Virus record (IMG/VR): IMGVR_UViG_3300012078_000002 | Coordinates: 1 to 60,795 of that record | DNA: 60,795 nt | Direction: 5' to 3' (one strand) | DNA from: a virus | Shown: piece by piece, positions 41,663 through 59,976 of the stretch | Layout of the letters: the number at the start of each line of letters is the position of its first letter | Numbering within the stretch: the first letter of the stretch is position 1 | Program-made: the position numbers and the translations under genes | The notes under the pieces: generated by a model | Told to the model about the DNA's origin: nothing | Databases searched by the model: none | What the model saw: only the letters and a program-made list of their open reading frames with translations

Positions 41663-43066
41663 TTATATTAGACTTTCGCGCTTGCCTCTGTTGTTCTTTT
41701 CTGCAATTCCCGTAGTGGCATCGGGAGCGTCGTCGTGCGCATTTTTACCTTCTTTTTGATACCTTGTCATTGCTTTATAATATTCCGGCCACTTATCCCC
41801 CCAGTTGACAGGGAAGTAAACATGGTTCATTACCCACGTGCTGTTTGACAGAATTCTTGATTGCTTATTTTTCGACTGGTGAAAAGTGGCAACATGACAT
41901 TTGTTTGATCCATATCTATTTTTCAATTCAGTCTGCACGTTTCTCGCGAACCCTCTGCCGCCATTATTAGATTCGATGTCTGCCGTATTTACGTTATCGT
42001 CATAAAGCATTTTGGCAGTAGCTGGTTCTGTAATCTCCATGCCCGCTTTGGTGTATAGAACATTAATGACGTAAGCTTCATTGTTATACACTACATAGTT
42101 AATGCTGCAAAGATAATCGTCGCCGGTATCTGCTGTATCTGTATAATTCTTGACCGATGAATAGAGCATGTTGCCGCTCTGATCCTTCGGCAGTTCGGTA
42201 TAAGTCTTGAGAGAAGTATAAAGCCGCCCTTTCAGATCTATAGGCTCCTGCTGATAATTTGCGCTGGCTATGTTGTCACCCATTGCTCTCACTTTGGCAT
42301 CATAGGACTTCCGGGACAGGATTTCGTCACAAAGCATGGTGCCGTCGTCCTGGAGGGCCTTCATGCTAATGTGGCGCATCTTTGCACCATCTTCTTTAAA
42401 ATGCTCCAGCGCCCGCCCTGCGAGGTCATCTGATGCCCAACGGGTCATGATGATGATGATCTTCCCGCCCTCTTCCAAGCGGGACAACATGGTATCTGCA
42501 AACCAAGTCCAGTGCTTTTCTTTTGTCAACTCATTATTGGCCTCTTCGGCATTTTTGATAAGGTCATCTATAATCAACAGCGTCGCGCCGAAACCAGTGG
42601 CCGTACCAGTGGGAGATGTGGCCAGGTAATTATTATATCCTCCATCCAGGCTCCACAGGTTCATGGCGCCGTCACCACACTTAATCCGGATGCCAGGAAA
42701 CACATCTGAAAACACCGGCTTGTATATATCGGCTTTTATTTCCTGTATATCATTCCTCACGTTTTTTGAAAACATGGTCGACAATGTTTCGTTATAGGAA
42801 CCGGTCATGATTTTTTGTTTTGGATCATTGCCCAACACCCACTCGACCAAAAGTCCAGCAGTGCGCGATTTTCCATGTCTGGGTGGCTCATTAACGATCA
42901 TTACATCTTCATCGGATTGGATGAAGTCTTGGAATTCATTGCAGAGATCGATTAGATAATGGCGATCTCTCTTGTAGAAACTGGGTGCTTTCAAGTTACA
43001 ATAAAAAAAGAACTCCCGCCGGGCAAGTTCTATCTTCGCACCTAATTGTATCAGTTTTTTATCCAT
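41663..43066 (-). CDS. terL: terminase large subunit
   Basis: Walker A-like PPRHGKS, Walker B LLIIDD, and the nuclease motif HDDAPDA near the C-terminus. Confidence 0.92.
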   Translation of the reverse strand: MDKKLIQLGAKIELARREFFFYCNLKAPSFYKRDRHYLIDLCNEFQDFIQSDEDVMIVNEPPRHGKSRTAGLLVEWVLGNDPKQKIMTGSYNETLSTMFSKNVRNDIQEIKADIYKPVFSDVFPGIRIKCGDGAMNLWSLDGGYNNYLATSPTGTATGFGATLLIIDDLIKNAEEANNELTKEKHWTWFADTMLSRLEEGGKIIIIMTRWASDDLAGRALEHFKEDGAKMRHISMKALQDDGTMLCDEILSRKSYDAKVRAMGDNIASANYQQEPIDLKGRLYTSLKTYTELPKDQSGNMLYSSVKNYTDTADTGDDYLCSINYVVYNNEAYVINVLYTKAGMEITEPATAKMLYDDNVNTADIESNNGGRGFARNVQTELKNRYGSNKCHVATFHQSKNKQSRILSNSTWVMNHVYFPVNWGDKWPEYYKAMTRYQKEGKNAHDDAPDATTGIAEKNNRGKRESLI

Positions 43067-43610
43067 CGTCTATCAGCTTCTTTAAATTTTCAGTCGACAG
43101 ACCGGCAAAGGGATTATTTACTTCCATTCCGCCAGACATTTCCACTTTGTCCTTGAACATGCCCAAGTGCCGGCCAATCAGTTCCAGTGATCCCTTTTTA
43201 TCGGTCAGCTTATATTTCTTAACATAGCCGACGAACTCCCTATCTTCACCGTATCCCTCATATACCTCCTGCACATCCAGACCCGCAATACATGCTGCCG
43301 TATCATCATCAAGCTCCGTAATATCTTTCGGTTTTCCATCGGCGTGAAATAGTTTTCTCGGGTCAAAGAATCCAAGCCGTCCCAATTCACGCAATACCGC
43401 GTCCTGGGTGATCTCCGTTCGCTGTTCTCTGTCCTTCATGCGCTGCTCAATGTATTCTACGATGTTAGTATTTGTTAGTGCCTTGCTTCCGTTAACCCTT
43501 GCGGCTTCATCCTTCTTACAACTTGGATACGCTGCCTTATAAGCGCGAGTGGCATTCAAGTCAATCAGGTATTCATCCACAAACCGCTTTTGTTTTTCAG
43601 TTAAGGACAT
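43059..43610 (-). CDS. terS: terminase small subunit (P27/Terminase_2-like)
   Basis: MSLTEKQKRFVDEYLIDLNATRAYKAAYP. Start moved from 43703. Confidence 0.85.
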   Translation of the reverse strand: MSLTEKQKRFVDEYLIDLNATRAYKAAYPSCKKDEAARVNGSKALTNTNIVEYIEQRMKDREQRTEITQDAVLRELGRLGFFDPRKLFHADGKPKDITELDDDTAACIAGLDVQEVYEGYGEDREFVGYVKKYKLTDKKGSLELIGRHLGMFKDKVEMSGGMEVNNPFAGLSTENLKKLIDDG

Positions 43611-44085
43611 ATCTATCACCCATCCGTATATAATTATTTGCGCTTGCCTCTCGCGCCGCTTGCCTACCTCGTCAGAGGATACCCACCTATTTTCCCCTCG
43701 CAAAAAGAGACACCTGCCGCGCTAAGCAGCAAATGCCTCTTCCAAAGGAGAGTGTCATAAAACAATCGGAACATCCGGACTTGAACCGGAATCTCGCAAC
43801 CACACCCGGTTGCTGTTCAACCGCTGTATCTTTGTTGAACCATATTCGCCCAGCGTATTTTTTCCCTTGTTTTTGCACAAGGTCGGTTTGCGCTACCACC
43901 TGTCGTAAGCATCCTATTTGTTCCTTTTGCGAAGACGCGAGCAATAGGCTAAGAACGTCGTCTTCTAATCGGCGACCGGGCTGTGACACCCGGAAGCCGT
44001 ATATAAAATTGGAGAGGAGGGACCGGGAATTCAGGAACATTATCAGGGAGTTAATATTGTTCCCATTACCGCTAATACAGTTATA
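43611..44085 (-). other. structured noncoding leader between the late-regulator candidate and terS
   Basis: 475 bp, relatively GC-rich, with only implausible ORFs. Nested stems: GAAGACG/CGTCTTC at 43931/43959 and CCTATT/AATAGG. A three-hairpin tRNA-like block lies at 43774..43840. Confidence 0.5.
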
Positions 44086-46625: not shown

Positions 46626-46817
46626 TTATTGCCCCGCCGGCACCACCCAGAATTCCCAACTATACCCGTCGCTGGTCCACGCCTGGAAGAACTCCTGATA
46701 AGGATCATACCGCACGTGGTCGATCTGGCGGGAAGTGATCACGATGTCGCGGTATACATCAGAGCTAATGGTGTGGTTGTTGCGATCGAGCAGTGCTTGT
46801 ATTTCATGTGAGTACAT
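46626..46817 (-). CDS. hypothetical protein (63 aa)
   Basis: ORF track. GGGGGTGAG upstream. Confidence 0.55.
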   Translation of the reverse strand: MYSHEIQALLDRNNHTISSDVYRDIVITSRQIDHVRYDPYQEFFQAWTSDGYSWEFWVVPAGQ

Positions 46818-46843: not shown

Positions 46844-48025
46844 TTAAATGTTCATGTTCTCCGGGATAACCCCTGGGTAATCCCCTAATGTCATTTGCCC
46901 TTTTATTTCTTCATTGGTAGCAGTTTTCTGCTGCTCTTTGTCCCATGCTTGTCTGAATGTCTTGTATGAATTGTATTGTTGGCGGTATCGATAGCTGTCG
47001 CCAAACACATTCCATGCGGCTTTAACCAGGTTTGGTTCAAACGGCCTTATCTTCTCTAAGTCTTCCGTCGCCTTTGCTGATATGGAGCATCCACAACACC
47101 CTGTACGCGTTAATCCATACACCTCATAGGCATCCGAATAGCGGAGTCCATAGTAATCTTTGTACCACTGCTTATCCGCATCCGACACATAAAACAGGGG
47201 CCGGAGCCTGTATTTTCCGTCAGCTGTTTCGGAAAAACACATTGAGGTATTATCCTTCCGTGGGACAGATCGCATACCGCCCTCGTCCCTGCGCTCGCCC
47301 GTTATAACCATATCGAATGACCGTTGGACACTGTGCGCTACCTGCTTTTTACAATAGTCGCAACATTTGTTGCTGACATTAAAAGGGATCGGATTGTCAG
47401 TTATAAAATCCAACATATACTTTGATGAATTTATAACTAACTGAATATCTGGCCTTGGCTCTCCCTTGGAATTACAGCAACATAAAAAATTAATTGTTGT
47501 TTCACATCCAGGATAGCGCTTTTTAAGTTCCGCCCGTTTTGCCGCCTTGTCCTCTGCGTCTGCGTATTCCTTATGTATTGACAGCGGAATATTTTTACGC
47601 TGTATACCCTCCAGACCGGCCGACATAATCTTTGAAACAAATGGCTGACCATATTCCCTTGTGGCTTGTACGATATTCTTCTTTGGCCGGTGTTTGGTAA
47701 TTGTTACGCCATATAGTGATTCCATTTCGACTACATGACGCTTTATTGCTTCCATTTCGAGCCCCGTGTTAAAAAAGGCATAATGGACGGAAGGGAAGCC
47801 GAATGTCTCGCGAACCTGCTCTATCAGGTGAAGAAGAATGTCGCTATCACTCCCACCAGAGTAAGAACAAACTGCGTTTGGATGCTCTTTAAGTCTTTTT
47901 GCAACAATGCTTTTTATAGCCTCAAATTTAGCCGGTGCGCTAAAGTCCGCATATGCCGGGCGATCTGTATATACTTTGCTTTTATAATTGTCCTTCATTG
48001 TTTTACCGAAAGGAGCCGTGTACAC
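46844..48025 (-). CDS. PAPS-reductase-family PP-loop protein with Cys-Cys clusters
   Basis: PP-loop CSYSGGSDS, plus FLCCCNS, NKCCDYCKK and TGCCGCS. The start is uncertain (GTG at 48025 or ATG at 47998). Confidence 0.8.
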   Translation of the reverse strand: MYTAPFGKTMKDNYKSKVYTDRPAYADFSAPAKFEAIKSIVAKRLKEHPNAVCSYSGGSDSDILLHLIEQVRETFGFPSVHYAFFNTGLEMEAIKRHVVEMESLYGVTITKHRPKKNIVQATREYGQPFVSKIMSAGLEGIQRKNIPLSIHKEYADAEDKAAKRAELKKRYPGCETTINFLCCCNSKGEPRPDIQLVINSSKYMLDFITDNPIPFNVSNKCCDYCKKQVAHSVQRSFDMVITGERRDEGGMRSVPRKDNTSMCFSETADGKYRLRPLFYVSDADKQWYKDYYGLRYSDAYEVYGLTRTGCCGCSISAKATEDLEKIRPFEPNLVKAAWNVFGDSYRYRQQYNSYKTFRQAWDKEQQKTATNEEIKGQMTLGDYPGVIPENMNI

Positions 48026-48072
48026 TTTGCCCTGCAGGAGCTCCGGTCCTTTCTGCTTATTCAGCTGTATTC

Positions 48073-48987
48073 TTATACTTTTTCATAATTCTCAAATCTC
48101 CGGCACTTTCGCCAGATGATTCGGTTGTTAACCCATCGCTGCAAATCCTTATGTTGCTGATCAGCATGCTCCTTGTCGTATAACATCACGTAGGGATCAT
48201 ATTTGAGATCACGCAAGGTATATATCCGGTGCAGGTCTTGCTCTATCGTGCTGTTATAATTTGTCAGCACATAAACAACTTTTCCACTTTCCGACTTCCG
48301 GTTGTAGCACTCCGAGAACCTTTTGAAATCTTCCGTCAAGTCCTGATCGGGCTGATCCCATGCCATATGTATCCTCTTGATTCGCATCCGGTTAAGCATT
48401 TCTATGCGCTCCGGCGTTGCAAGTCTGACGTCAATACCCTGGGTGAAATCTATAATCGCCCTTGACTCCACCAGCTGCCCTAATAGGTCGTCCCTATCCC
48501 GACAAGCTAATATGTTAGGGTCGCATAGTGTTACATGCCCCTGTCCGTCCCAGAACGCCCGTAGATCAGCAACCTTGATACTGCACCGGCCCTCTTTGGC
48601 GGCAACGTGGCAGAAGCTGCACCCCCTTGGGCATCCGCGGGTTAGGAATCCGAACGCCGTGTCCTTGGTCAAGTCCGGGTATATGCTGTAATCCGGATAG
48701 ATGTGTTCAATCTCTTCCGGCAGCGAAGTATCACGGTCTGACCGGTAAGCCTCTTTGCCGTCAACCAAGTCGATACAGTAACCACTGCCGCACCGGATGA
48801 CCTCATTGGCATCAATACAATCGTCATAGTCCGGTGAGAAAGAAAACACCTTGCTCATATACACCCGGTCACAATGATTAGAAAACATCGGATCGTACCA
48901 CTCAACCCTGTCCCCTTGCTGCTTATGCCATGCTGATAACTTCATTAAGGGCAAATTAGGAAAATTGTGGCCGTCCACGTCTATCAA
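48073..48987 (-). CDS. radical SAM protein
   Basis: CPRGCSFC (CxxxCxxC) in FLTRGCPRGCSFCHV. The N-terminal start codon is ambiguous. Confidence 0.8.
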   Translation of the reverse strand: MIDVDGHNFPNLPLMKLSAWHKQQGDRVEWYDPMFSNHCDRVYMSKVFSFSPDYDDCIDANEVIRCGSGYCIDLVDGKEAYRSDRDTSLPEEIEHIYPDYSIYPDLTKDTAFGFLTRGCPRGCSFCHVAAKEGRCSIKVADLRAFWDGQGHVTLCDPNILACRDRDDLLGQLVESRAIIDFTQGIDVRLATPERIEMLNRMRIKRIHMAWDQPDQDLTEDFKRFSECYNRKSESGKVVYVLTNYNSTIEQDLHRIYTLRDLKYDPYVMLYDKEHADQQHKDLQRWVNNRIIWRKCRRFENYEKV

Positions 48988-49034
48988 TCCTATCTTGATA
49001 TCCTCACCGCCTTTCTGATCAATCTAATTTTAAT

Positions 49035-49487
49035 TTACCCATCGCAGAAATTGCCGATGACTTCATAATCTTTTCCCTGAATCTCCTGGTCATTTCCGTA
49101 TTCAGGTAAAATCATAGGAAATCTCAAACCGTCTCCCAGCAGTATGTCATACCTTGCATCAACCTCATTCCAGGATACTGTTGCCCGATGAAATGCAGCC
49201 CCTCGCTTTTTGCATCTAACAATATCATTTTCAAATATTCTTCGCCCGTTCTTGTCCCAAAGGCCAGTAAATTGACATAGCGTTTCGGGGACAATATCCA
49301 TCTGTAACTTCCGATTCGGAAGTCCCCAGTCCGTCATCCAATCAAATAACAGATAATGTTTAGTATTTTCCGGATTATTTTCATAATCACTCTGTACGCA
49401 ATATGTGGTTTCATCAGTCTGCCAATAATACCCCTCGCGCCAACCTTCACCGTCTTTACCCTTTGCCTTAAATAATATCTCTTTCAT
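49035..49487 (-). CDS. YopX-like protein
   Basis: ILFKAKGKDGEGW...GRRIFENDIV...EVIGNFCDG. GGAGGTAG upstream. Confidence 0.6.
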   Translation of the reverse strand: MKEILFKAKGKDGEGWREGYYWQTDETTYCVQSDYENNPENTKHYLLFDWMTDWGLPNRKLQMDIVPETLCQFTGLWDKNGRRIFENDIVRCKKRGAAFHRATVSWNEVDARYDILLGDGLRFPMILPEYGNDQEIQGKDYEVIGNFCDG

Positions 49488-49519
49488 TTACTACCTCCAT
49501 CAAGTTCTAATTTTGCTGA

Positions 49520-49987
49520 TTAAATATTTCCTTCCCAATTCCATAATCCTTGATATCCCCGCGCCGGTATCGGCTCGGGAAGCATCGTCATGTTGGCAAA
49601 TTCCCATGCATATCGGCCCGGCATCCAGTCGCCAAATAAAAGCTCATTTTCATTTTTGATATAAACAGATTTGACGTAAATCCCTGTTGCTTCGCTTTTT
49701 GGGGCTATATATGTTCCCATGGCATCCACGCCTATTAGATGGCACCCTACAAGCTCCGCCATGGCGATGACAGCGCCACGTGGCAAGTCTGAAAAATCGG
49801 TACGTCCTAATGCCTCGTAGGCACTATTCATCAAGCTTATTTGCGTGATTGCCTTGCACGGGTTTCGTAGTCCTGCATGTATCGCAATCGGCCCGCGATA
49901 ATTCGTTGCCCACGATCTTGTTTCGTATTGTTTTGCGCCACAAGCAAGTAAGCTCGCCCATGGTTGCCACATTGTTATTACTTTCAT
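49520..49987 (-). CDS. ASCH-domain protein
   Basis: ITMWQPWASLLACGAKQYETRSWATNYRGPIAIHAG is a typical ASCH N-terminus. AAGGAGGG upstream. Confidence 0.75.
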   Translation of the reverse strand: MKVITMWQPWASLLACGAKQYETRSWATNYRGPIAIHAGLRNPCKAITQISLMNSAYEALGRTDFSDLPRGAVIAMAELVGCHLIGVDAMGTYIAPKSEATGIYVKSVYIKNENELLFGDWMPGRYAWEFANMTMLPEPIPARGYQGLWNWEGNI

Positions 49988-50010
49988 GTTTACCCTCCTT
50001 AAAAATTAAT

Positions 50011-50238
50011 TCACCCGAACATTTCAATTTGCCCGTCACACCCATCACACTGCCGCTGCTTCACTTCCCGCGGCTTATACGTTTTGTCCAGGTCAAACGC
50101 ATCCATCGGATTAAGGTCAAATAACTTACAGTGATTGACTGACTTCGCGCTTGCCTCGCTCATTGTCTTTTTCTTTTCGTTACAGTAGATACCATTCCCC
50201 GTCACAAGGTAAGAGCAGTACCGGCAGTATTGTCTCAT
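50011..50238 (-). CDS. small Cys-rich protein (75 aa)
   Basis: CRYCSY...CDGCDG. AGGAGGTG upstream. Confidence 0.6.
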   Translation of the reverse strand: MRQYCRYCSYLVTGNGIYCNEKKKTMSEASAKSVNHCKLFDLNPMDAFDLDKTYKPREVKQRQCDGCDGQIEMFG

Positions 50239-50254
50239 TTCCGCACCTCCTGTC

Positions 50255-50425
50255 TTAACGGCTTATAAAATATATCCGTCTGCTTTTGTTGCACTTGTCA
50301 CAGGAAAATTCATATACAACTACCGCAATTCTGAATCTGGTGTCATGAAACAATACGAATCTTTCAGCGGCGCATATTCCGTGTATGCTACTAAAATGCT
50401 TTTCAAAACACTTTCTACCTGTCAT
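50255..50425 (-). CDS. small Cys-containing protein (56 aa)
   Basis: Hand-translated: MTGRKCFEKHFSSIHGICAAERFVLFHDTRFRIAVVVYEFSCDKCNKSRRIYFISR. ATGA overlap with the upstream stop. Confidence 0.4.
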   Translation of the reverse strand: MTGRKCFEKHFSSIHGICAAERFVLFHDTRFRIAVVVYEFSCDKCNKSRRIYFISR

Positions 50426-50697
50426 CTTTCATCGTCCTCCATGTTAATATCAAGGCGATGCCGGCAGATCGGGCAAAAAATCCAGCTGGCGCGTATCGGC
50501 GCACCGCAGTTGCTACAACTTCCGTCTAAATCCTGTTCCCTGTCATCCAACTGCCGCAGCTCCCGCGCGAAGTCCTCACATGCGGCCTCATAGGCTTTAT
50601 ACGCTGCTTCGATTACGGCGATCTCTTTGATGTACAGTTCTGTTCGTTTGTGCTGTAATTCATCTGCTATTCGATGCGATTCATCTGTTATTTTCAT
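50422..50697 (-). CDS. coiled-coil plus zinc-ribbon protein (91 aa)
   Basis: CSNCGAP...CPICRH. Confidence 0.6.
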   Translation of the reverse strand: MKITDESHRIADELQHKRTELYIKEIAVIEAAYKAYEAACEDFARELRQLDDREQDLDGSCSNCGAPIRASWIFCPICRHRLDINMEDDER

Positions 50698-50714
50698 TTC
50701 TCTGCCTCTCTTTC

Positions 50715-51341
50715 TTAATAATCAAATATATTCATCTGATCTTTGGCGACGCTCAATCTTTCGCTGGCCGCCTTATAATAATCCGGATCAAGCTCAAATC
50801 CGATGTAATCAAATCCCAGCTCCCTACAGGCCACTAAGCTGCTTGCGCTGCCGACATGCGTATCGAGAATCTTGTCACCCTTCTTGGCGTAGTTGTTTAA
50901 AATCCATTTATATAGTGCTACCGGCTTTTGCGTTGGGTGTATCCTGTCTTTCTGATTTGGATGTATTTTGCGTATTTTTGCATTTTCATCAAATGATGTC
51001 CATGCATATTCACATTCAGAAAAACTGCGACCATACATGCTTTCACCTTTGTCCCATATAAGAAAGCATCTTGTTGCTGATAATTCCGTAAAATAATTGC
51101 CACCCCATATTATTTGATTCTTACTCACACGAAAAAGCTCGTTGAAATATTTTTCGTCTGGCACATGCATGTCCCATGCCTTCGAAGTATCTATCTTTTT
51201 TATATCGCAATTACCCATTCGCATTTTAGTAACATCAATTCCGTAAGGTGGGTCAACTACTGCCAAATTGAAATATTTGTCCGGGAGCTGTTTCATTCCC
51301 TCCATGCAATCCATGTTCAGAAAACTGTTTAATTCAAACAT
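50715..51341 (-). CDS. DNA methyltransferase (N6-adenine/N4-cytosine, DPPY type)
   Basis: Motif IV VVDPPYG near the N-terminus and SAM motif ILDTHVGSASS near the C-terminus (beta-class order). Confidence 0.85.
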   Translation of the reverse strand: MFELNSFLNMDCMEGMKQLPDKYFNLAVVDPPYGIDVTKMRMGNCDIKKIDTSKAWDMHVPDEKYFNELFRVSKNQIIWGGNYFTELSATRCFLIWDKGESMYGRSFSECEYAWTSFDENAKIRKIHPNQKDRIHPTQKPVALYKWILNNYAKKGDKILDTHVGSASSLVACRELGFDYIGFELDPDYYKAASERLSVAKDQMNIFDY

Positions 51342-51385: not shown

Positions 51386-52408
51386 TTACGTCTTTTCGCC
51401 CGGTGACCGGTATGGTTCCGGCAGTCTCATCCAGGCCAGCACCTCCTCGCAATATCCAGACCATATAGCCCTGTTTCCAAGGACTTCACTAAACCACCTG
51501 GTACATGTTTCAAAATAATGATCTCCACAATCGATGATATTCCTGCGATACTCCCACTGGGCATCATGAACGGGTGGATCATTTCTTCTGACAAAGCAGA
51601 TATATACTCCTGGTGCTTCCGGCAGCCGCTCTTTTGCTGGAATCCACCTGTGTATATCCCTTTCTGCCTCTAGCTCTGCAATTCTGCCTAGTAGGATATC
51701 TTCTGTCGTTTCACACGGGAAATCATCTATTGCATCACACTGAAAATACTCTGGCTCTTCCGGTTGCGATATCGCAACTGTCGCCTCGCCTACCATCTGG
51801 TCAATAGTCATGGTAAAGGCCGGTAATGCGCTAACTTTCTCCGGCAAACTGACCGGCTCCGGTGCACTATCTCCAAGCAAGTCATTAATTGACAACACTG
51901 GCGATACACTTTCGCCGTAATCTATTCCGTACCCATCCGGCAGGAATTGCGGAAATTCAGTTATGGTCATCTGGCCCGGCAGCTGTTCACCTTCTTGTTG
52001 TTTTCCCAGCTCCCTGATGTCCATCACCTGCATAGCTGGTTCTGTTCGTTCAAGTTGTTCATCCGTAAGATACAACATCTCCTGTAACTGGCTCTTTCCA
52101 AACCCTTGATACCGATCATCAGCAATCGGACTATTTCCATCCTTGGAAAACCGGTCATTGATAGCCATGTACCGGGATATCGTGGATTTGCTTAATCCAA
52201 ATTCCTCTCTGGCAAACTCTGCTAGGGTGACATATCCATCCTGGGTATATAGCTCGTTATCCCGAATATGTTTGAGATAGTACCCGATTGCTATAACGCT
52301 TCTCGCCACCGAAACAACGTTGGCCCGCAGGATGTTTTTTGTTTCTTCCAGGTCAAGGCCGTGATACCAGGGCTTTGTCTCCGCTGGAATTATTTTTAGT
52401 TCCTCCAT
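51386..52408 (-). CDS. HTH DNA-binding protein with C-terminal DUF551-like domain
   Basis: LAEFAREEFGLSKSTISRYMAI, and C-terminal WIPAKERLPEAPGVYICF...VLAWMRLPEPY. Confidence 0.55.
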   Translation of the reverse strand: MEELKIIPAETKPWYHGLDLEETKNILRANVVSVARSVIAIGYYLKHIRDNELYTQDGYVTLAEFAREEFGLSKSTISRYMAINDRFSKDGNSPIADDRYQGFGKSQLQEMLYLTDEQLERTEPAMQVMDIRELGKQQEGEQLPGQMTITEFPQFLPDGYGIDYGESVSPVLSINDLLGDSAPEPVSLPEKVSALPAFTMTIDQMVGEATVAISQPEEPEYFQCDAIDDFPCETTEDILLGRIAELEAERDIHRWIPAKERLPEAPGVYICFVRRNDPPVHDAQWEYRRNIIDCGDHYFETCTRWFSEVLGNRAIWSGYCEEVLAWMRLPEPYRSPGEKT

Positions 52409-52636: not shown

Positions 52637-53923
52637 TTAATCAAACGGCGTAGGTTCTCGGGCTGGGGAAAACTCTTCTTCCTTCACTGGTTCCCCGGTT
52701 TCTTCAAACCGCATAACCGAACCGTTAAAGCGCATAGCCACTTTGCCGGTCTCGCCCTGCCGCTGCTTCTCAATCTTGATTGCTTTCTTGCCCCCGTCCG
52801 TCTTGCTTGTATTCCACATCAGCAATATATTACTGGCATCCTGCTCAATGTCCCCTGATTCCCTCAACTCTGCCATAGTCGGCTCCTTGGTCTCTCTTGC
52901 CTCGCTCTGGCGGTTCAACTGTGACAGCACAACAATAGGCGTGTTGATCTCCATTGCCAGCCCCTTCATGGCCCTAGAGATAGCGCCCACTTCGGCGGCC
53001 CGGTTCGGGTACCACGTATCTGATCTAAGCAGCTGTAAATAATCAATGACGATTACTTCAAAGTCGTTGTGTCGGCATTCGTTCCTGATCTCTGATATCT
53101 TTTTTGGGCCGCTGCTGATCCAGACGTTAAACCCTGTTAGGACTTTGTTTGCTCGGCTCACCCTTTCCTGTTCGTCGTTCAGGTAGTTTTTTGCCCGTCG
53201 AATCCGTTTCAAGCCTATCCCTGTCTGGCTGGAAAGCATACGCTCATAGACCTGCTTGTCCATCATCTCAAGGTTATAAAAAGCTACCTTCTTGCCCGAC
53301 AGGGCAATGCTGGCTATTACCTGTGTCACAAAAGCTGATTTTCCTACCGCCGGTCTTGCGCCGATTACTGTGATATCTCCCCCCTCAAGGCTGCCTATCA
53401 TATCATCAAGCCGGGGAAATCCGAATTTCACTCCGGTTTCTGGCAGATCAACAAAACACTTGTCCTTGTTTTCCTTGACGATCTGTGCCATCGGCTTGAG
53501 GTTGTTCTTTTCGCATCTTACCAAAGCTTCCAGGTCATTCAGCAAGGCCCCTATGGTCCCGTCAATACTACTTGGCACAATCTGCACGGAATTGATAATG
53601 CGTGACAGCATCTTGGCCTTGTGGTTATTAATCAACACATCAGCCGATCCCCGTATGGTTGCAGACGTAACGGTATTTTCCACGCATCCCTTGATGGTCC
53701 GAAACGTCGTATCGCTGTTATATCCAGACTCTCCCAGCCACTGGCAGAGATTAACCAAGCTCACCGGTTCGCCCATGTCGTAAGCCTTGATTATTTCAAA
53801 ATACGCTCTGGACAAGAGGTCGGTCTCAAACATTTCCGGTTTCAGATCGTCGTATATACCCTGCACGGTATTGATGTCCATCAGCAACGCCCCGATGATG
53901 GATTGTTCCGCCATTAGGCTCAT
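52637..53923 (-). CDS. dnaB: replicative DNA helicase (DnaB family)
   Basis: AEQSIIGALLMD N-terminus and Walker A GARPAVGKSAF. Start moved to MSLMAEQ (ATGA overlap with the upstream stop). Confidence 0.92.
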   Translation of the reverse strand: MSLMAEQSIIGALLMDINTVQGIYDDLKPEMFETDLLSRAYFEIIKAYDMGEPVSLVNLCQWLGESGYNSDTTFRTIKGCVENTVTSATIRGSADVLINNHKAKMLSRIINSVQIVPSSIDGTIGALLNDLEALVRCEKNNLKPMAQIVKENKDKCFVDLPETGVKFGFPRLDDMIGSLEGGDITVIGARPAVGKSAFVTQVIASIALSGKKVAFYNLEMMDKQVYERMLSSQTGIGLKRIRRAKNYLNDEQERVSRANKVLTGFNVWISSGPKKISEIRNECRHNDFEVIVIDYLQLLRSDTWYPNRAAEVGAISRAMKGLAMEINTPIVVLSQLNRQSEARETKEPTMAELRESGDIEQDASNILLMWNTSKTDGGKKAIKIEKQRQGETGKVAMRFNGSVMRFEETGEPVKEEEFSPAREPTPFD

Positions 53924-54672
53924 GTCTCGTCCTCCTGTACATAGTCCAATATTGATTTGTTTAAAAGGGTGTCGAAGTTTTTGTAAAATTCCAAGTCTTT
54001 CCCACCTGCCTCCTGTTCTCGTACATAGGCCCTTACGGCGATGTACATCTGACGGTTGGTCAGTTTGATTGTGCGGCCATTGATCTTCCGGCCCTTCAAC
54101 CATCCAAGGTAATGTTCGTAAGCTTTGGCTCTGCCTTTCTTCCTGGGGTATATCGCATATATGGTGGCGAAATCTTCTTCCCGCGTATCTGGTTTTTCGG
54201 ATTCAGAGTTTACTTGTTCGACGCCCGGCGAACAAAAGAGTTTTTTATTATCTTCTTTACATTCTTTCTTTCTAACATTCTTGTTAGTGTTCACTTGTTG
54301 TTCACTCGTTGTTCGCTCGTTGTTCACTTGTTGTTCAATTTGTTGTTCACTGCTTTGGTATTTACCCCAATTCGTCAAGGATATAAGCCGATTTTTGGTG
54401 CAAGTTTGTTGTTCAATCTGTTGTTCGATTTCGAACCGTTTCAGTACGCGTTGCACTTTGCTTTCGTTGATCAACAATTCAGCTGATATTGACTTCCTGC
54501 CGGTTATCAGCTGCCCCGGTTGCAGCTTTATCCTTGTTCCGTCAAATATCACATCTTGCTCGGCGTGGGTTGCATTAAGGAGTAAGTATATCCATATCGC
54601 TATGTGATCGGCATCCTTGCAAACTACCGGATTATTAAGCATTTGGCGGTGAATCTTTACGTATCCCTCCAT
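53920..54672 (-). CDS. replisome organiser / DnaD-like replication initiator
   Basis: N-terminal winged-helix-like YVKIHRQMLNNPVV...LITGRKSISAELLINESKVQRVLKRFE. Lies directly upstream of dnaB and contains the iteron array. Confidence 0.7.
   Translation of the reverse strand: MEGYVKIHRQMLNNPVVCKDADHIAIWIYLLLNATHAEQDVIFDGTRIKLQPGQLITGRKSISAELLINESKVQRVLKRFEIEQQIEQQTCTKNRLISLTNWGKYQSSEQQIEQQVNNERTTSEQQVNTNKNVRKKECKEDNKKLFCSPGVEQVNSESEKPDTREEDFATIYAIYPRKKGRAKAYEHYLGWLKGRKINGRTIKLTNRQMYIAVRAYVREQEAGGKDLEFYKNFDTLLNKSILDYVQEDET
54297..54428. repeat. iteron-like 9-mers GTTGTTC(A/G)(C/A), 7 copies (candidate origin)
   Basis: Copies start at 54297, 54308, 54319, 54330 and 54342 (11-12 bp phasing) and at 54408 and 54420, all inside the organiser gene. 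Confidence 0.6.
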
Positions 54673-56696: not shown

Positions 56697-57073
56697 ATTT
56701 CAACCTCCCGGATAATAATCTCAATCCGGGGATTACCAGGATCGCAATGAAAATTATCCGTAAATCCTACAATATGTTTCCATCCGTCCCCCTGCAGCGT
56801 TCCACACTTCACAAGTGCGTCTTGAATCACCTTGCGGCCAAAACTGGAAATATTATCAAGGTCTCTTTTTCTGTCTTTTTCGAACCAGTTATAAATGATT
56901 CTTACGGGCCTAGATATATGTAACCGTCTCAATTGTTGCCGGATGGCCCACTGTACTACTTCTTGGTTTTGGGCTTTCATTTTCCCGCCTTTGCGGGGGC
57001 TGGTTCGGTTGGCTGCTGTGTATTCATTCAGACCATCCAAACGCCCTTGGATAACAAATTTGTATTCCATCAC
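56693..57073 (-). CDS. rusA: RusA-family Holliday junction resolvase
   Basis: Size, RKRDLDNISSFGRKVIQDALVKCGTLQGDGW, and 4-nt overlaps with its neighbours. Confidence 0.8.
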   Translation of the reverse strand: MMEYKFVIQGRLDGLNEYTAANRTSPRKGGKMKAQNQEVVQWAIRQQLRRLHISRPVRIIYNWFEKDRKRDLDNISSFGRKVIQDALVKCGTLQGDGWKHIVGFTDNFHCDPGNPRIEIIIREVEI

Positions 57074-57867
57074 AAATCCCCCATTAATTCAGAAAAATGA
57101 ATCGCTTTGGTGAGTACTTTTGTGTGCTTACAATAATCACACACCTCACAGCGGATTGGTTCATAGTCGCCATTTTTCAATGCAAAAATTTTCGCTACAT
57201 TACTTTCGACCTCAATCAGTTTTTCTTTCAGGTGAAGATCATCAATGAAAATAACGTTGATGTCCGGTTCCTTTTCTTTACTGGCCGCAGCTATAAAAAA
57301 CGGAAGTTTCTCGCCGGTGTTTTGTCTGACAATCTCCTGATATACAGCCCCTTGGATGTCATAACCCCAATACTGGACAAAATCCATATATCCGGTATCG
57401 CGAACCCAGAATGTGTCCTTAATAGCTTTCATCACTTTGAGATCAACAATCGCTTGACCGGGCAAATAACTGTCAATTTTGATTTTTACCTTTGCGCCAG
57501 CTATTTCGCCGGTCATAATAACTTGTTTTTGCCCAGACAGATATTGCATCATGTACGCATCTCTTTCGATCCTACATATAACATTTTCGGCATTCCTGTA
57601 GTCTGCTTTTAGATCGCCGCTTTTGGTGAATATCTCTGAATTAGACGCCTTGAAAAGTCCTAATGATTCCTCAAAGTGGGCATCTACGTAGGAACCAACC
57701 AGCAAGGCGGTAGTCTTATCTGTTATCCATTCTCCCGACAGTTTCGCGAGTGCTTGGGCTTCGCACGGGACTTTTCCCAAACTACCGCAGAAGTCCTTGT
57801 ACTGGCTAACAGACAGGTATTCCTGATTAGCTTCTTTACTGTGGTAATTCTCTACACTTAGGATCAT
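57070..57867 (-). CDS. PD-(D/E)XK (RecB/Cas4-like) exonuclease
   Basis: IVDLKVMK (D-x-K), QYWGYDIQGAVY (QxxxY) and the C-terminal Cys cluster CEVCDYC. Partner of RecT. Confidence 0.75.
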   Translation of the reverse strand: MILSVENYHSKEANQEYLSVSQYKDFCGSLGKVPCEAQALAKLSGEWITDKTTALLVGSYVDAHFEESLGLFKASNSEIFTKSGDLKADYRNAENVICRIERDAYMMQYLSGQKQVIMTGEIAGAKVKIKIDSYLPGQAIVDLKVMKAIKDTFWVRDTGYMDFVQYWGYDIQGAVYQEIVRQNTGEKLPFFIAAASKEKEPDINVIFIDDLHLKEKLIEVESNVAKIFALKNGDYEPIRCEVCDYCKHTKVLTKAIHFSELMGDL

Positions 57868-58490
57868 ACGACTACCTCCGTTATAGCGGGAAATACATCC
57901 GGAATATCATAGAATGTCTTTTCCTTGAACGCGTCTTCGGCCTCGCCCTCTACGTATACGCCCATTAGGGCATTGGGCAAGTAAGCCCTTGCGAAAAATG
58001 CAGCTGCGCGATAAATCAACATTTGTTCGGGCATCGTCTTCCACTTACTGCCGTCTTTATTTATCCAGCCTTCCTTTTCCGCCATTTCCATAGTGACGGT
58101 TGTCCCTTTTACGATTTCCCCGGTGTCTTTATATTCTGCCTCAACGAAACATCCTCGGTCAGCGTCCCCCTCTTTGCCCACATGCCTGATTCTCGCGTTT
58201 TTAAACTGTCTGGCGGCATAAATCATGCTCATGCAAGCCTGTCCGCTCCAAGTTGGTTTTCCCTTCACAATATATAAATTTTGCATTACCATCATCGGAC
58301 TCACCTGCATTCGGTTCGCCATGTCAACCGCAATCGCACAATCCATCGGCTTGCCTCTATAGCTGCTTGGTACGATGTCAGACACCGCGAACATTTTCCC
58401 TATATCATATAATTCCTGAAAAGCGGCTGAGTTCGCGAACGGGTTTGTAACCTCGTATTTTTGATCTTGAATAATGATCTCGTTATCCAT
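57864..58490 (-). CDS. recT: RecT-family single-strand annealing protein
   Basis: MFAVSDIVPSSYRGKPMDCAIAVDMANRMQVSPMMVMQNLYIVKGKPTWS is a typical RecT core. Confidence 0.85.
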   Translation of the reverse strand: MDNEIIIQDQKYEVTNPFANSAAFQELYDIGKMFAVSDIVPSSYRGKPMDCAIAVDMANRMQVSPMMVMQNLYIVKGKPTWSGQACMSMIYAARQFKNARIRHVGKEGDADRGCFVEAEYKDTGEIVKGTTVTMEMAEKEGWINKDGSKWKTMPEQMLIYRAAAFFARAYLPNALMGVYVEGEAEDAFKEKTFYDIPDVFPAITEVVV

Positions 58491-58498
58491 GTGCCCTC

Positions 58499-59929
58499 CT
58501 ATAATTCCACTACCAGTAAATCGTCGTCATCGGTTGTCCGTGTTGCGATAAACTGTAAGCCTTTGTCTTTGCATTTTTGGTATAACTCTGTTCTCAATTT
58601 AGTCGACAGCTTTTCCACGCCATCAATCAAAATGATTTGCAATCCATTAGGTTTCTGAATTGCCACATCGATGCAAAGGTCTAACTTTTCTCCATCCGAC
58701 AGGTTGCTGATCGGCAAGCCACGAATCAGTGGTATCCCGTCTTTTACCGTAAGCCCTTCGATAGGGATTTTTGCGGTCTGTAAAATTTCACCCGGCAAAG
58801 CCCTGGCCTTTTCAATCTTTTCGGTCAGCATACGTTCTTCTTCTATCAATTCATCCACCTTCTCCTGCATATTAAGCATGCGGCGGTGTTCGTTTAAATG
58901 TTTCTTCATTTCCTCAACATATACCGCTTCTTCCATAAGGCTGCTTGTCTCTTGTGGCTCTTTCTCTGCGCATAACCGGTATTCATCTACTACCGCGTCA
59001 TAGGTGGCGATATCCGCCCGGTACTTCTCTTCTACCAGATCGGTTTTGCTTTGCTTTTTGCTTGACAGTCCGGAAAGCTCTTTCCGGCAGGAATTGATCT
59101 GTTCTTCAAGAGAAGCAATTTTTTCCTTCAAATCAGATTCTTGGCGCATACACTCTCTTTCCAATGCTGCCAGTGCAATTTCTCTTTCCGCGTCATAGGC
59201 ACGCACCTTGTTATTGCGCTCATTAACTAAGGATTTGGCCTTTTGAATTGTTTCGTTTTCTTTTCGGATCCGCTCGATCCGTTGATACAACTCTGACAAA
59301 TCCGCTTTCTCCCATCGCTCTGCCTGATAGCCAGTCGGGATTGTAGCCGCTATTTCTTCGATAAAAGCCCTCTTGTTTCGTTTTTCCAAGGCAATATCAT
59401 GGCGCTGCTGGAAATATTCCCCTTTTTCAGATTGGATATCATTAAGAACCGAAAGAATGTTTTGATCGTAAGATACCCAGCTGGGGATTTCACCAAACCA
59501 TTCCTTGATCGTCTGCACGGTCCAGGGATACTCAACCATATCCAAAATAATGGCGTTTTGCTGCTTTTTGTCCATGCTCATAAATTCAAATGGAGAAAGC
59601 TGTAAGGGGCTGAATATATCCCTCAGAAACGATTCCGGACTACCGACCTCATACCCATCCTTTTTCACGCTTTTATAATCTGCCTGCGTGGTTCTGGCTT
59701 TCCGGTTGATCCGCATGTTATTATCTGTTTCGATCAAAATTTCGCCCTCGGTCTCTCCTTTCCGTACTATGTATTCCCGGTCTGACTTGTTTGTCAGAGC
59801 GTAGCGGATCGCGTCAATAACAGAAGTTTTTCCAGCCCCATTTAAGCCGGATAATTCCAGGCTTTTCCCGTCCGCTTCAAATTCTTTGATACCAAAAAGA
59901 TTTTTGATTTTGATTTTTGTTAGTCGCAC
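58499..59929 (-). CDS. SMC/RecF/SbcC-like AAA ATPase
   Basis: Walker A GLNGAGKTS, a long coiled-coil, signature LSDGEK, and Walker B IILIDGVE. Start moved to the GTG (VRLTKIKIKNLFGI) behind AAGGGAG. Confidence 0.85.
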   Translation of the reverse strand: MRLTKIKIKNLFGIKEFEADGKSLELSGLNGAGKTSVIDAIRYALTNKSDREYIVRKGETEGEILIETDNNMRINRKARTTQADYKSVKKDGYEVGSPESFLRDIFSPLQLSPFEFMSMDKKQQNAIILDMVEYPWTVQTIKEWFGEIPSWVSYDQNILSVLNDIQSEKGEYFQQRHDIALEKRNKRAFIEEIAATIPTGYQAERWEKADLSELYQRIERIRKENETIQKAKSLVNERNNKVRAYDAEREIALAALERECMRQESDLKEKIASLEEQINSCRKELSGLSSKKQSKTDLVEEKYRADIATYDAVVDEYRLCAEKEPQETSSLMEEAVYVEEMKKHLNEHRRMLNMQEKVDELIEEERMLTEKIEKARALPGEILQTAKIPIEGLTVKDGIPLIRGLPISNLSDGEKLDLCIDVAIQKPNGLQIILIDGVEKLSTKLRTELYQKCKDKGLQFIATRTTDDDDLLVVEL

Positions 59930-59976
59930 TTGACAATCTCCCTTCATCCCCCTATAATTGGGGGTGTACAGTATAA

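Follow-up and report, generated by a model that had tools for sequence, protein, structure and literature searches.

Does a run of neighbouring phage genes encode one biochemical pathway, or has it been assembled from parts that come and go independently? The question is raised by positions 46,844–51,341 of IMGVR_UViG_3300012078_000002, an IMG/VR virus record of 60,795 nucleotides (nt), which was analysed as a whole and is called the window here. Eight open reading frames (ORFs) lie in this locus, among them genes for a radical S-adenosylmethionine protein (rSAM) and for a 393-amino-acid (aa) protein with the 3′-phosphoadenosine-5′-phosphosulfate (PAPS) reductase fold (PAPS393). A sequence-only reading had taken these genes for one candidate module for an uncharacterised nucleic-acid modification. 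Our analysis gives a somewhat better than even chance to another reading, namely that the locus is a hypervariable DNA-modification and anti-restriction island of independent, swappable cassettes.

Slot contents and gene co-occurrence

The window was compared with six metagenomic relatives (L004, L005, L006, L075, L076 and L160) whose flanks are 85–96% identical to it at the nucleotide level. The contents diverge between two small ORFs, p75 (50011–50238) and p63 (46626–46817), which form the upstream and downstream boundaries of a variable slot. On the p75 side the flank is 85–94% identical in L075, L076, L006, L004, L005 and L160, and on the p63 side 91–96% identical in L075, L076, L005 and L160. 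Within the slot the window holds, in this order, genes for an ASCH protein, a YopX-family protein, rSAM and PAPS393. L006 has rSAM followed by PAPS393, and in L004 PAPS393 comes straight after p75, with the contig stopping in the region downstream of the PAPS gene. The slot of L005 contains a Dam methyltransferase (MTase), PAPS393, a C5 MTase and a small MTase-like gene. In L075, rSAM (98% identical at the amino-acid level) is followed by a 257-aa protein (PAPS257; PF01507, E = 8.7e-9) with a degenerate SNGIDS PP-loop and by an N6_N4 MTase; L076 has rSAM, a C5 MTase and a 159-aa DPPH protein; and L160 has an 80-aa ORF, a 304-aa protein (PAPS304; PF01507, E = 5e-24) and a split C5 MTase. Together with the window, these relatives present seven arrangements in total.

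Thus rSAM is found in L006, L075 and L076 and is missing from L004, L005 and L160, and neither ASCH nor YopX occurs in any of the six near-identical relatives. Because the slot contents vary among such close relatives, each of the four supposed module genes is optional in one genomic background, and the genes that replace them encode DNA MTases and other PAPS_reduct proteins. This speaks against the view of the locus as one coherent module, since the same background carries PAPS393 without rSAM (L004, L005) and rSAM without PAPS393 (L075, L076). The accompanying proposal of a DNA-modification or anti-restriction role fits the context, as the near-isogenic slots hold Dam, N6/N4 and C5 MTases instead of these genes or alongside them. 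The slot with its alternatives is directly observed, and so is the gene content.

Some features of the slot and of more distant lineages were recorded in addition. The C5 MTase of L160 (3959–5362) is spread over two ORFs, the first with an HTH_7/HNH-like insert after motif I, and may contain an intervening mobile element or be a disrupted gene. Homology between L005 (9902–9934) and the window (48124–48073) starts about 50 nt inside the 3′ end of rSAM, though L005 has Dam there; this edge looks like a recombination scar and suggests that the PAPS393 cassette once travelled with rSAM. Outside the near-identical set, another prophage lineage (P0171) has the order C5 MTase–rSAM–Dam with gaps of 22 and 13 nt. 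In a further prophage type, rSAM and a gene for another PAPS_reduct protein, PAPS443, are separated by 22 nt; in its sister lineage that position is filled by an unrelated 159-aa gene.

To count how often the two enzymes meet elsewhere, PAPS and MTase genes in loci were detected by multi-seed, iterative, seed-based phmmer searches rather than by Pfam, with statistics that ignore kinship. These searches replaced an earlier single-seed phmmer estimate that undercounted distant PAPS subfamilies; an iterated YopX family drifted onto the 159-aa MTase-like ORF of L076, and that result was ignored. In annotated phage records, 16 PAPS393 matches and 16 rSAM matches share no record. Of the viral loci with PAPS393 relatives, 7/71 have rSAM within 10 kb, and of those with rSAM, 21/79 have a PAPS-superfamily gene nearby (14 under a strict PP-loop filter). 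The corresponding counts in TerL-anchored background loci are 1/80 for rSAM and 7/80 for PAPS (Fisher p = 0.026 and 0.0035, respectively, ignoring kinship). In 80 species-representative genomes, a PAPS gene was found within 6 kb of rSAM in 15 and adjacent to it in 7, and a DNA MTase within 6 kb in 40 and adjacent in 16, where gene frequencies would give chance adjacencies of approximately 1–2.4% and 5%, respectively. Co-occurrence of the two enzymes in other genomes, on which the idea of a module had in part depended, is therefore real for a minority that is directly adjacent and above chance, but most occurrences lack the partner (64/71 PAPS393 loci, 58/79 viral rSAM loci and 65/80 species genomes). 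That the two enzymes co-occur without being obligate partners is an observation.

No universal neighbour of either enzyme was seen in the 71 and 79 viral loci, and the commonest neighbours of both are generic replication genes (DnaB, SSB, HNH, replisome organisers). Among individual phages, rSAM adjoins a distant PAPS_reduct gene (24% identity to PAPS393) in Dulem virus 39, both genes lie within 6 kb in BI-TP1, LoVEphage, BKO1-TP3 and NatCom_21982, and rSAM is found without a nearby PAPS_reduct gene in phiCT453B and vir215. In BI-TP1, whose host belongs to another phylum, genes for ASCH, a PAPS reductase, a phrog_67 MTase, a DUF551 protein and rSAM are packed into 3.7 kb (L155, 2234–5888), and its accessory region also holds an RtcB ligase, MazG and a TIGR02757 protein. 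The public record of LoVEphage has a barrnap '5S ribosomal RNA' on the opposite strand between the PAPS reductase and rSAM (L158, 5146–5251), which is probably a false call.

PAPS393 and the radical SAM protein

PAPS393 is encoded on the minus strand at 46844–48025. It matches PF01507 (E = 6.1e-13; 49.6 bits against a gathering cut-off of 22.5), as do 42/42 diverse relatives, and phrog_424 (4.3e-26). The motifs that had been read from its sequence, SGGSDS, FLCCCNS, NKCCDYCKK and TGCCGCS, are all present in the translation. The PP-loop, S56-G-G-S-D-S61, has S56, G57, G58, D60 and S61 invariant among the 42 family members. The three Cys-Cys motifs, which had been taken to suggest Fe-S chemistry, fared unevenly in the same alignment. 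C221 is conserved in 42/42 members, C222 in 41/42, C263 in 39/42, and C310 and C313 in 42/42, whereas C182/C183 of FLCCC are found in 2/42, C225 in 4/42 and C311 in 8/42. Judged by conservation, the argument from three motifs was one-third right, and what is conserved is CC...CxxC with one further Cys. The CC and GCxxC motifs line up with 'ECCRLRK' and 'IGCAPC' of the sulfonucleotide reductase 7lhr. In adenosine-5′-phosphosulfate (APS) reductases, CC...CxxC provides the ligands of a [4Fe-4S] cluster. PAPS393 would thus probably carry a [4Fe-4S] site formed by C221, C222, C310 and C313, plus C263.

As a single sequence PAPS393 has no sequence relative in the PDB. A profile of 42 PAPS393 representatives (28–38% identity) found PAPS/APS reductases as its best PDB matches (6vpu, 5e-7; 1sur, 6e-6; 7lhr, 1e-5; 2goy, 2e-5), and other PP-loop enzymes matched it in the PP-loop alone. 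No Cys follows C313 in PAPS393, and the C-terminal catalytic cysteine of the ECG[LI]H motif is thus absent. The scores against the NCBIfam CysH/APS reductase models are far too low (NF002537, 33.2 bits vs a cut-off of 154; TIGR02055, 23 vs 235), and the PP-loop is canonical where the aligned reductases have a degenerate SSSFG. There is also a family-specific insert of approximately 90 aa, with residues 51–314 covering 172 Pfam positions. For PAPS393, PADLOC returned no DndC; BrxP (E = 1.4e-4) and SspD (E = 9e-4) matched it weakly, in its N-terminal part, within residues 35–128. Neither NCBIfam nor PADLOC gave an orthologue-level match for PAPS393 or rSAM. Because of the canonical loop, the conserved cysteines and the poor CysH and DndC scores, we regard PAPS393 as a putative PP-loop ATP-pyrophosphatase-type enzyme with a probable Fe-S cluster. 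By these sequence criteria it is like DndC in architecture, yet not an orthologue of DndC, SspD or BrxP.

Among 8,000 scored candidates, clustering at 90% identity gives over 6,000 clusters for the PAPS393 family, and 124 representatives at 50% identity have E <= 1e-30. The ORF opens with GTG at 48025, and most homologues are called at 383 aa, equivalent to ATG 47998 (Met10), which is the probable start; a convincing ribosome-binding site was found at neither codon. An AlphaFold2 model made from a shallow alignment (32 sequences, 79–92% identity) reached a predicted local distance difference test score (pLDDT) of 42 and was not used.

The rSAM gene (48073–48987, minus strand) encodes 304 aa with the CPRGCSFC motif and matches phrog_9298 (7.8e-99); Pfam Radical_SAM stays below its cut-off (21.7 vs 29.5 bits). 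C119, C123 and C126 of the CxxxCxxC motif are invariant in the family, and an auxiliary cluster is unlikely because only C71 and C162 are conserved outside the SAM cluster. The AlphaFold2 model (pLDDT 84; predicted template modelling score 0.78) shows an N-terminal alpha/beta, Rossmann-like domain followed by a radical SAM barrel. A Foldseek search of the PDB with this model returned an MtaB model, AprD4, LIAS (lipoyl synthase) and SuiB (TM 0.34–0.54, probability 0.98–1.0), which, for a predicted structure, are matches at fold level only. In BFVD only unnamed radical SAM or 'B12-binding-like' viral proteins were found. The modelled N-terminal domain resembles AprD4 and the B12-binding-like viral proteins at fold level, with no Pfam B12-binding match, and as a single sequence rSAM has no sequence match in the PDB. 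Membership of the methylthiotransferases (MTTases; MiaB/RimO/MtaB) was considered and rejected: rSAM lacks the N-terminal three-Cys cluster, ends at residue 304 without a TRAM domain, and matches RimO at E = 0.25 in the CxxxCxxC region only.

This family is abundant too. All 8,000 of 8,000 scored candidates had E <= 1e-5, and at least 572 stretches in species-representative genomes encode an rSAM relative, the hosts among the matches listed being Lachnospiraceae, Oscillospiraceae, Ruminococcus, Bacteroidales, Prevotella, Alistipes and Treponema. The relatives open with MKIGLIDVDG, and the equivalent start codon reads ATC (48997–48999) in the window, L075 and L076. Translation of rSAM must therefore begin at TTG 48987, at GTG 48978 or at the non-canonical ATC. 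Both enzymes belong to large, catalogued and functionally uncharacterised phage families. Their description as uncharacterised was borne out by hidden Markov model (HMM) searches, and by Foldseek for rSAM: neither is orthologous to CysH, DndC/SspD/BrxP, QueC/QueE or an MTTase.

The island and its surroundings

All eight ORFs of the locus were confirmed at the coordinates given here, on the minus strand and with minimal gaps (−4 to 47 nt), as had been described; from the MTase to the PAPS-like gene the spacing is 17, −4, 16, 23, 32, 47 and 47 nt. The family assignments proposed for them (DPPY MTase, ASCH, YopX, radical SAM and PAPS-reductase family) agree with Pfam and phrog matches, with the ASCH match marginal in Pfam and Radical_SAM below the Pfam cut-off, and such memberships are likewise observed. 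The MTase (208 aa; 50715–51341, minus strand) matches N6_N4_Mtase (PF01555, 2e-17; 64.3 bits, cut-off 26.7), phrog_67 (8.6e-47) and PADLOC MTase_II (8.7e-45). Its DPPY sequence, motif IV, which precedes the SAM-binding motif, occupies residues 30–33, and the protein is predicted to be an orphan beta-class N6-adenine/N4-cytosine DNA methyltransferase. It belongs to the conserved left part of the island, being kept in L004, L005 and L160 at 93–94% nucleotide identity. Next to it, all on the minus strand, come a Zn-ribbon protein (Zn91, 91 aa; 50422–50697; Zn_ribbon_3, 4.9e-7); p56, a small Cys-containing ORF (56 aa; 50255–50425) that overlaps Zn91 by 4 nt, has no family match and found a phmmer match in 3/71 related loci, in close relatives only; and p75, a small CxxC protein (phrog_31107, 2.9e-16). 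In the slot the ASCH (PUA-like) protein lies at 49520–49987 (PF04266, a marginal 22.0 bits vs a cut-off of 21.2; phrog_3193, 6.5e-38) and the YopX-family protein at 49035–49487 (PF09643, 4.1e-11), both on the minus strand. The p63 ORF, also on the minus strand, has no family match.

The island had been placed between replication and packaging genes, and it is indeed flanked by a DnaB helicase (52637–54103) on one side and by TerS (43059–43703) and TerL (41663–43066) on the other. Upstream lie the DnaB-type helicase, a DnaD-like loader and a RecT/PDDEXK/ATPase recombination module, and downstream a putative late activator followed by TerS and TerL. The closest homologues that carry a name are from Murimonas, Lachnospiraceae, Enterocloster and Angelakisella, and the window belongs to a tailed phage or prophage whose host is a gut Firmicutes bacterium. 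A promoter and terminator scan of 43.5–54.5 kb gave sites no more numerous than in shuffled sequence, and operon boundaries are therefore left unclaimed. The whole window (1–60795) has no tRNA, no tmRNA and no Rfam family at gathering score, and a comparison with plasmid sequences gave no match. The partner genes of Dnd, queuosine-type (Que) and tRNA-guanine transglycosylase (TGT) pathways had been called absent; none is present among the approximately 30 ORFs between 41.6 and 59.9 kb, which holds for this part of the window, the structural and lysogeny half lying outside the scan.

Several observations concern genes next to the island. As listed, the DnaB ORF (488 aa) shares 184 nt with the DnaD-like loader ORF upstream of it (52637–54672), and its true start is probably an internal Met near residue 61, because the Pfam N-terminal domain starts only at residue 62. 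The recombination module (57070–59947) consists of a PDDEXK nuclease (DUF3799, 4.4e-75), RecT and a 482-aa SbcC/ABC-like ATPase (phrog_1499; 58499–59947) whose likeness to PtuA, LmuB, GajA and DndD (E = 5.8e-4 for DndD) is limited to the surroundings of Walker A. Upstream of the MTase, a 340-aa protein (51386–52408) has a phrog_15077 region at its N-terminus, weakly like a Borrelia 'replication/partitioning' family, and a DUF551 region at its C-terminus; in the Bacteroides phage BI-TP1, too, a DUF551 protein is encoded directly upstream of rSAM.

Readings of the locus and known systems

In the reading that we favour, 46.8–51.3 kb would be an accessory region between the replication and packaging genes of a temperate gut Firmicutes (Lachnospiraceae-type) siphophage, and its distal part, from p75 to p63, a recombination hot spot that collects swappable anti-restriction cassettes. 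The load of the window phage would be the orphan N6/N4 MTase and four optional cassettes (ASCH, YopX, rSAM and PAPS393). The MTase may methylate phage DNA and blunt restriction. PAPS393 would be an ATP-pyrophosphatase containing a [4Fe-4S] cluster that, like DndC/SspD/BrxP or TtuA-type thiolases, activates a nucleic-acid substrate by adenylation and transfers sulfur; alone or with host factors, it could aid escape from modification-dependent immunity such as the phosphorothioate (PT)-based Dnd, Ssp and BREX-4 systems. For its part, rSAM would catalyse a radical-SAM reaction of its own, with DNA or a nucleotide as the substrate. The genes would be co-transcribed, yet would not form a single obligatory pathway.

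Several points weigh against this reading. Adjacency of rSAM to a PAPS-superfamily gene is approximately 5-fold above the gene-frequency expectation, and the adjacent PAPS partners come from at least five divergent subfamilies in either gene order, a hint that the two are functionally linked and not simply independent. The excess may also reflect clustering of analogous anti-restriction genes, as with the commoner MTase neighbours. Furthermore, the co-occurrence figures ignore phylogenetic relatedness and depend on seed-based phmmer for MTase and PAPS detection, and DNA is suggested as the target of PAPS393 or rSAM by context and analogy. Known PT systems require a PAPS-domain protein and a P-loop NTPase (PMC12914056), and no such NTPase partner is found among the approximately 30 ORFs scanned; if PAPS393 makes or mimics PT chemistry, it would then have to use host partners or act otherwise. 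Lastly, the sole experimental anti-Dnd precedent is a PAPS-Dam fusion of a Vibrio podovirus, not an orthologue of PAPS393.

The adjacency data are what an alternative, facultative two-enzyme system would build on, in which rSAM and a PAPS_reduct enzyme act on one substrate, for instance in a sulfur-containing or radical-installed hypermodification of phage DNA, with PAPS subfamilies interchangeable as partners and host enzymes filling in for a missing one. We consider this possible but unlikely. Direct adjacency occurs in 5/39 rSAM lineages of the viral loci and, as given above, in 7/80 species genomes against an expected 1–2.4%, and both comparisons with the TerL-anchored background point the same way. 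The partners (P393, P257, P443, P355/P340 and P421/P423) are <=36% identical or undetectably related; L075 has PAPS257 in the place of PAPS393 beside its 98%-identical rSAM, a different prophage type has rSAM and PAPS443 22 nt apart, and Dulem virus 39, BI-TP1, LoVEphage, BKO1-TP3 and NatCom_21982 have both genes within 6 kb. This alternative has to contend, however, with the missing partner in most loci of either enzyme, with PAPS393 unaccompanied, or accompanied by MTases only, in the near-isogenic L004 and L005, and with rSAM alongside MTases only in L076 and the P0171 lineage. MTases are even commoner neighbours of rSAM, so that clustering of analogous island genes can account for the adjacency, and in some of the PAPS variants beside rSAM the CC dyad is missing or the PP-loop degenerate (SNGIDS in P257), which speaks against a single shared chemistry. 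In its furthest-reaching form, phrog_9298 rSAM and PAPS_reduct enzymes would be an unrecognised facultative system for sulfur- or radical-dependent phage DNA modification, distinct from Dnd/Ssp/BREX-4 PT and from 7-deazaguanines, with a PAPS partner replaceable by non-orthologous subfamilies and widespread in gut Bacillota/Bacteroidota prophages; so extended, the proposal is more doubtful again.

Two further readings leave DNA modification aside. PAPS393 might be a TtcA/TtuA/Ncs6-like tRNA thiolase, rSAM an RNA-modifying enzyme and ASCH a binder of RNA or a modified base, together tuning host or phage translation, a possibility to which we assign a still lower probability. A PP-loop with a [4Fe-4S] cluster is a hallmark of TtuA/Ncs6/TtcA thiolases, and the PAPS393 profile reaches TtuA and a [4Fe-4S] U34 thiolase at E 0.01–0.03, in the PP-loop region only; the best PDB relatives are nevertheless sulfonucleotide reductases (5e-7). 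Likewise, the tRNA methylthiotransferase MtaB is among the best structural matches of rSAM, which lacks the three-Cys cluster and TRAM domain of MTTases. ASCH domains are mostly tied to RNA metabolism (PMC10269572, citing Iyer et al., 2006), and Bacteroides phages with the same gene set have an RtcB tRNA ligase close by, but the window encodes no tRNA and the slot-mates in relatives are DNA methyltransferases. The remaining proposal, that PAPS393 is a true PAPS/APS reductase (CysH) acting as an auxiliary metabolic gene (AMG) that raises host sulfur assimilation, is in our opinion very improbable. It agrees with the PF01507 fold, with the best PDB matches and with the interpretation given to such phage genes in several genome papers (10.64898/2026.02.18.706556; 10.1101/2021.07.29.453957). 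It conflicts with the lack of a catalytic cysteine, with the canonical SGGSDS loop and with a context of DNA methyltransferases rather than sulfur-metabolism genes; further points against it are the NCBIfam scores (23–33 bits vs cut-offs of 154–235) and the insert of approximately 90 aa.

The island of independent cassettes thus remains the reading that we prefer, and the choice matters beyond this window. Few accessory genes are reported from phages as often, or understood as poorly, as the 'PAPS reductases', which are usually labelled as sulfur-metabolism AMGs. For the PAPS393 family the locus speaks against this label, given the missing catalytic cysteine, the canonical PP-loop and a slot otherwise occupied by DNA methyltransferases. 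The near-isogenic natural variants, together with cultured hosts of related prophages (Murimonas intestini DSM 26524, Faecalicatena contorta, Enterocloster clostridioformis and Blautia glucerasea), offer a concrete experimental entry point that would let the effects of PAPS393 and the phrog_9298 rSAM on phage DNA and on gut host defences be tested.

How does the locus compare with systems already known? The APS/PAPS reductases (CysH; 7lhr, 2goy, 1sur, 6vpu) are the closest structural-sequence relatives of PAPS393 (E 5e-7 to 2e-5), and its CC...GCxxC aligns with 7lhr residue for residue; the differences are those that set it apart from CysH above, namely the loss of the C-terminal catalytic cysteine, the canonical PP-loop, the insert and scores far under the equivalog cut-offs. 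With DndC, SspD and BrxP it shares the PAPS_reduct fold, a canonical PP-loop, Fe-S-type cysteines including a Cys dyad, and a setting of phage-host conflict over DNA modification; DndC has been described with this fold, a PP-loop and Fe-S-type cysteines including a dyad (PMC10853773). PAPS393 differs in being stand-alone and phage-borne and in its family-specific insert. Orthology to this group was rejected in view of the PADLOC results (no DndC, weak BrxP and SspD) and since no DndD/SspC/BrxC, DndE/SspB or cysteine desulfurase is encoded nearby. Like the locus, the QueC/QueE clusters of phages, which serve DNA modification, combine a radical SAM enzyme with a PP-loop ATPase. The QueC/QueE pathway was tried as a candidate and rejected (QueC, 2pg3, E = 0.03 in the PP-loop only; QueE, Foldseek rank 24, E = 0.078; no DpdA/TGT, QueD or FolE among the ORFs scanned). 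AprD4 and the MtaB-type (COG1032-type) radical SAM proteins, the top Foldseek matches (probability 1.0), have a CxxxCxxC core after a Rossmann-like domain as rSAM does, with TM values of 0.43–0.54; rSAM is far shorter (304 aa) and lacks auxiliary-cluster cysteines, TRAM and SPASM.

A functional parallel comes from Vibrio phages, where a PAPS-Dam fusion that is swapped against methylases shifts host range and defeats host Dnd (Piel et al.; bioRxiv 10.1101/2021.05.05.442762, cited so in PMC13551039). There, too, a PAPS-domain gene sits in a variable locus and is exchanged against DNA methylases, and the Vibrio case is tied experimentally to escape from PT defence. In that podovirus, which infects a Gram-negative host, the PAPS domain and Dam form one protein, whereas PAPS393 is a separate protein of another subfamily, in a siphophage of Firmicutes, and is known from sequence alone. 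PAPS reductases have also been found in Aca-regulated anti-defence operons (PMC13551039), and gut Bacillota and Bacteroidota often carry PT systems (PMC12914056). Both the island concept and the link between PAPS-like genes and anti-defence are already in the literature, and in its position the locus has a counterpart in the 'nin' region of lambda, a comparable accessory region between replication and packaging.

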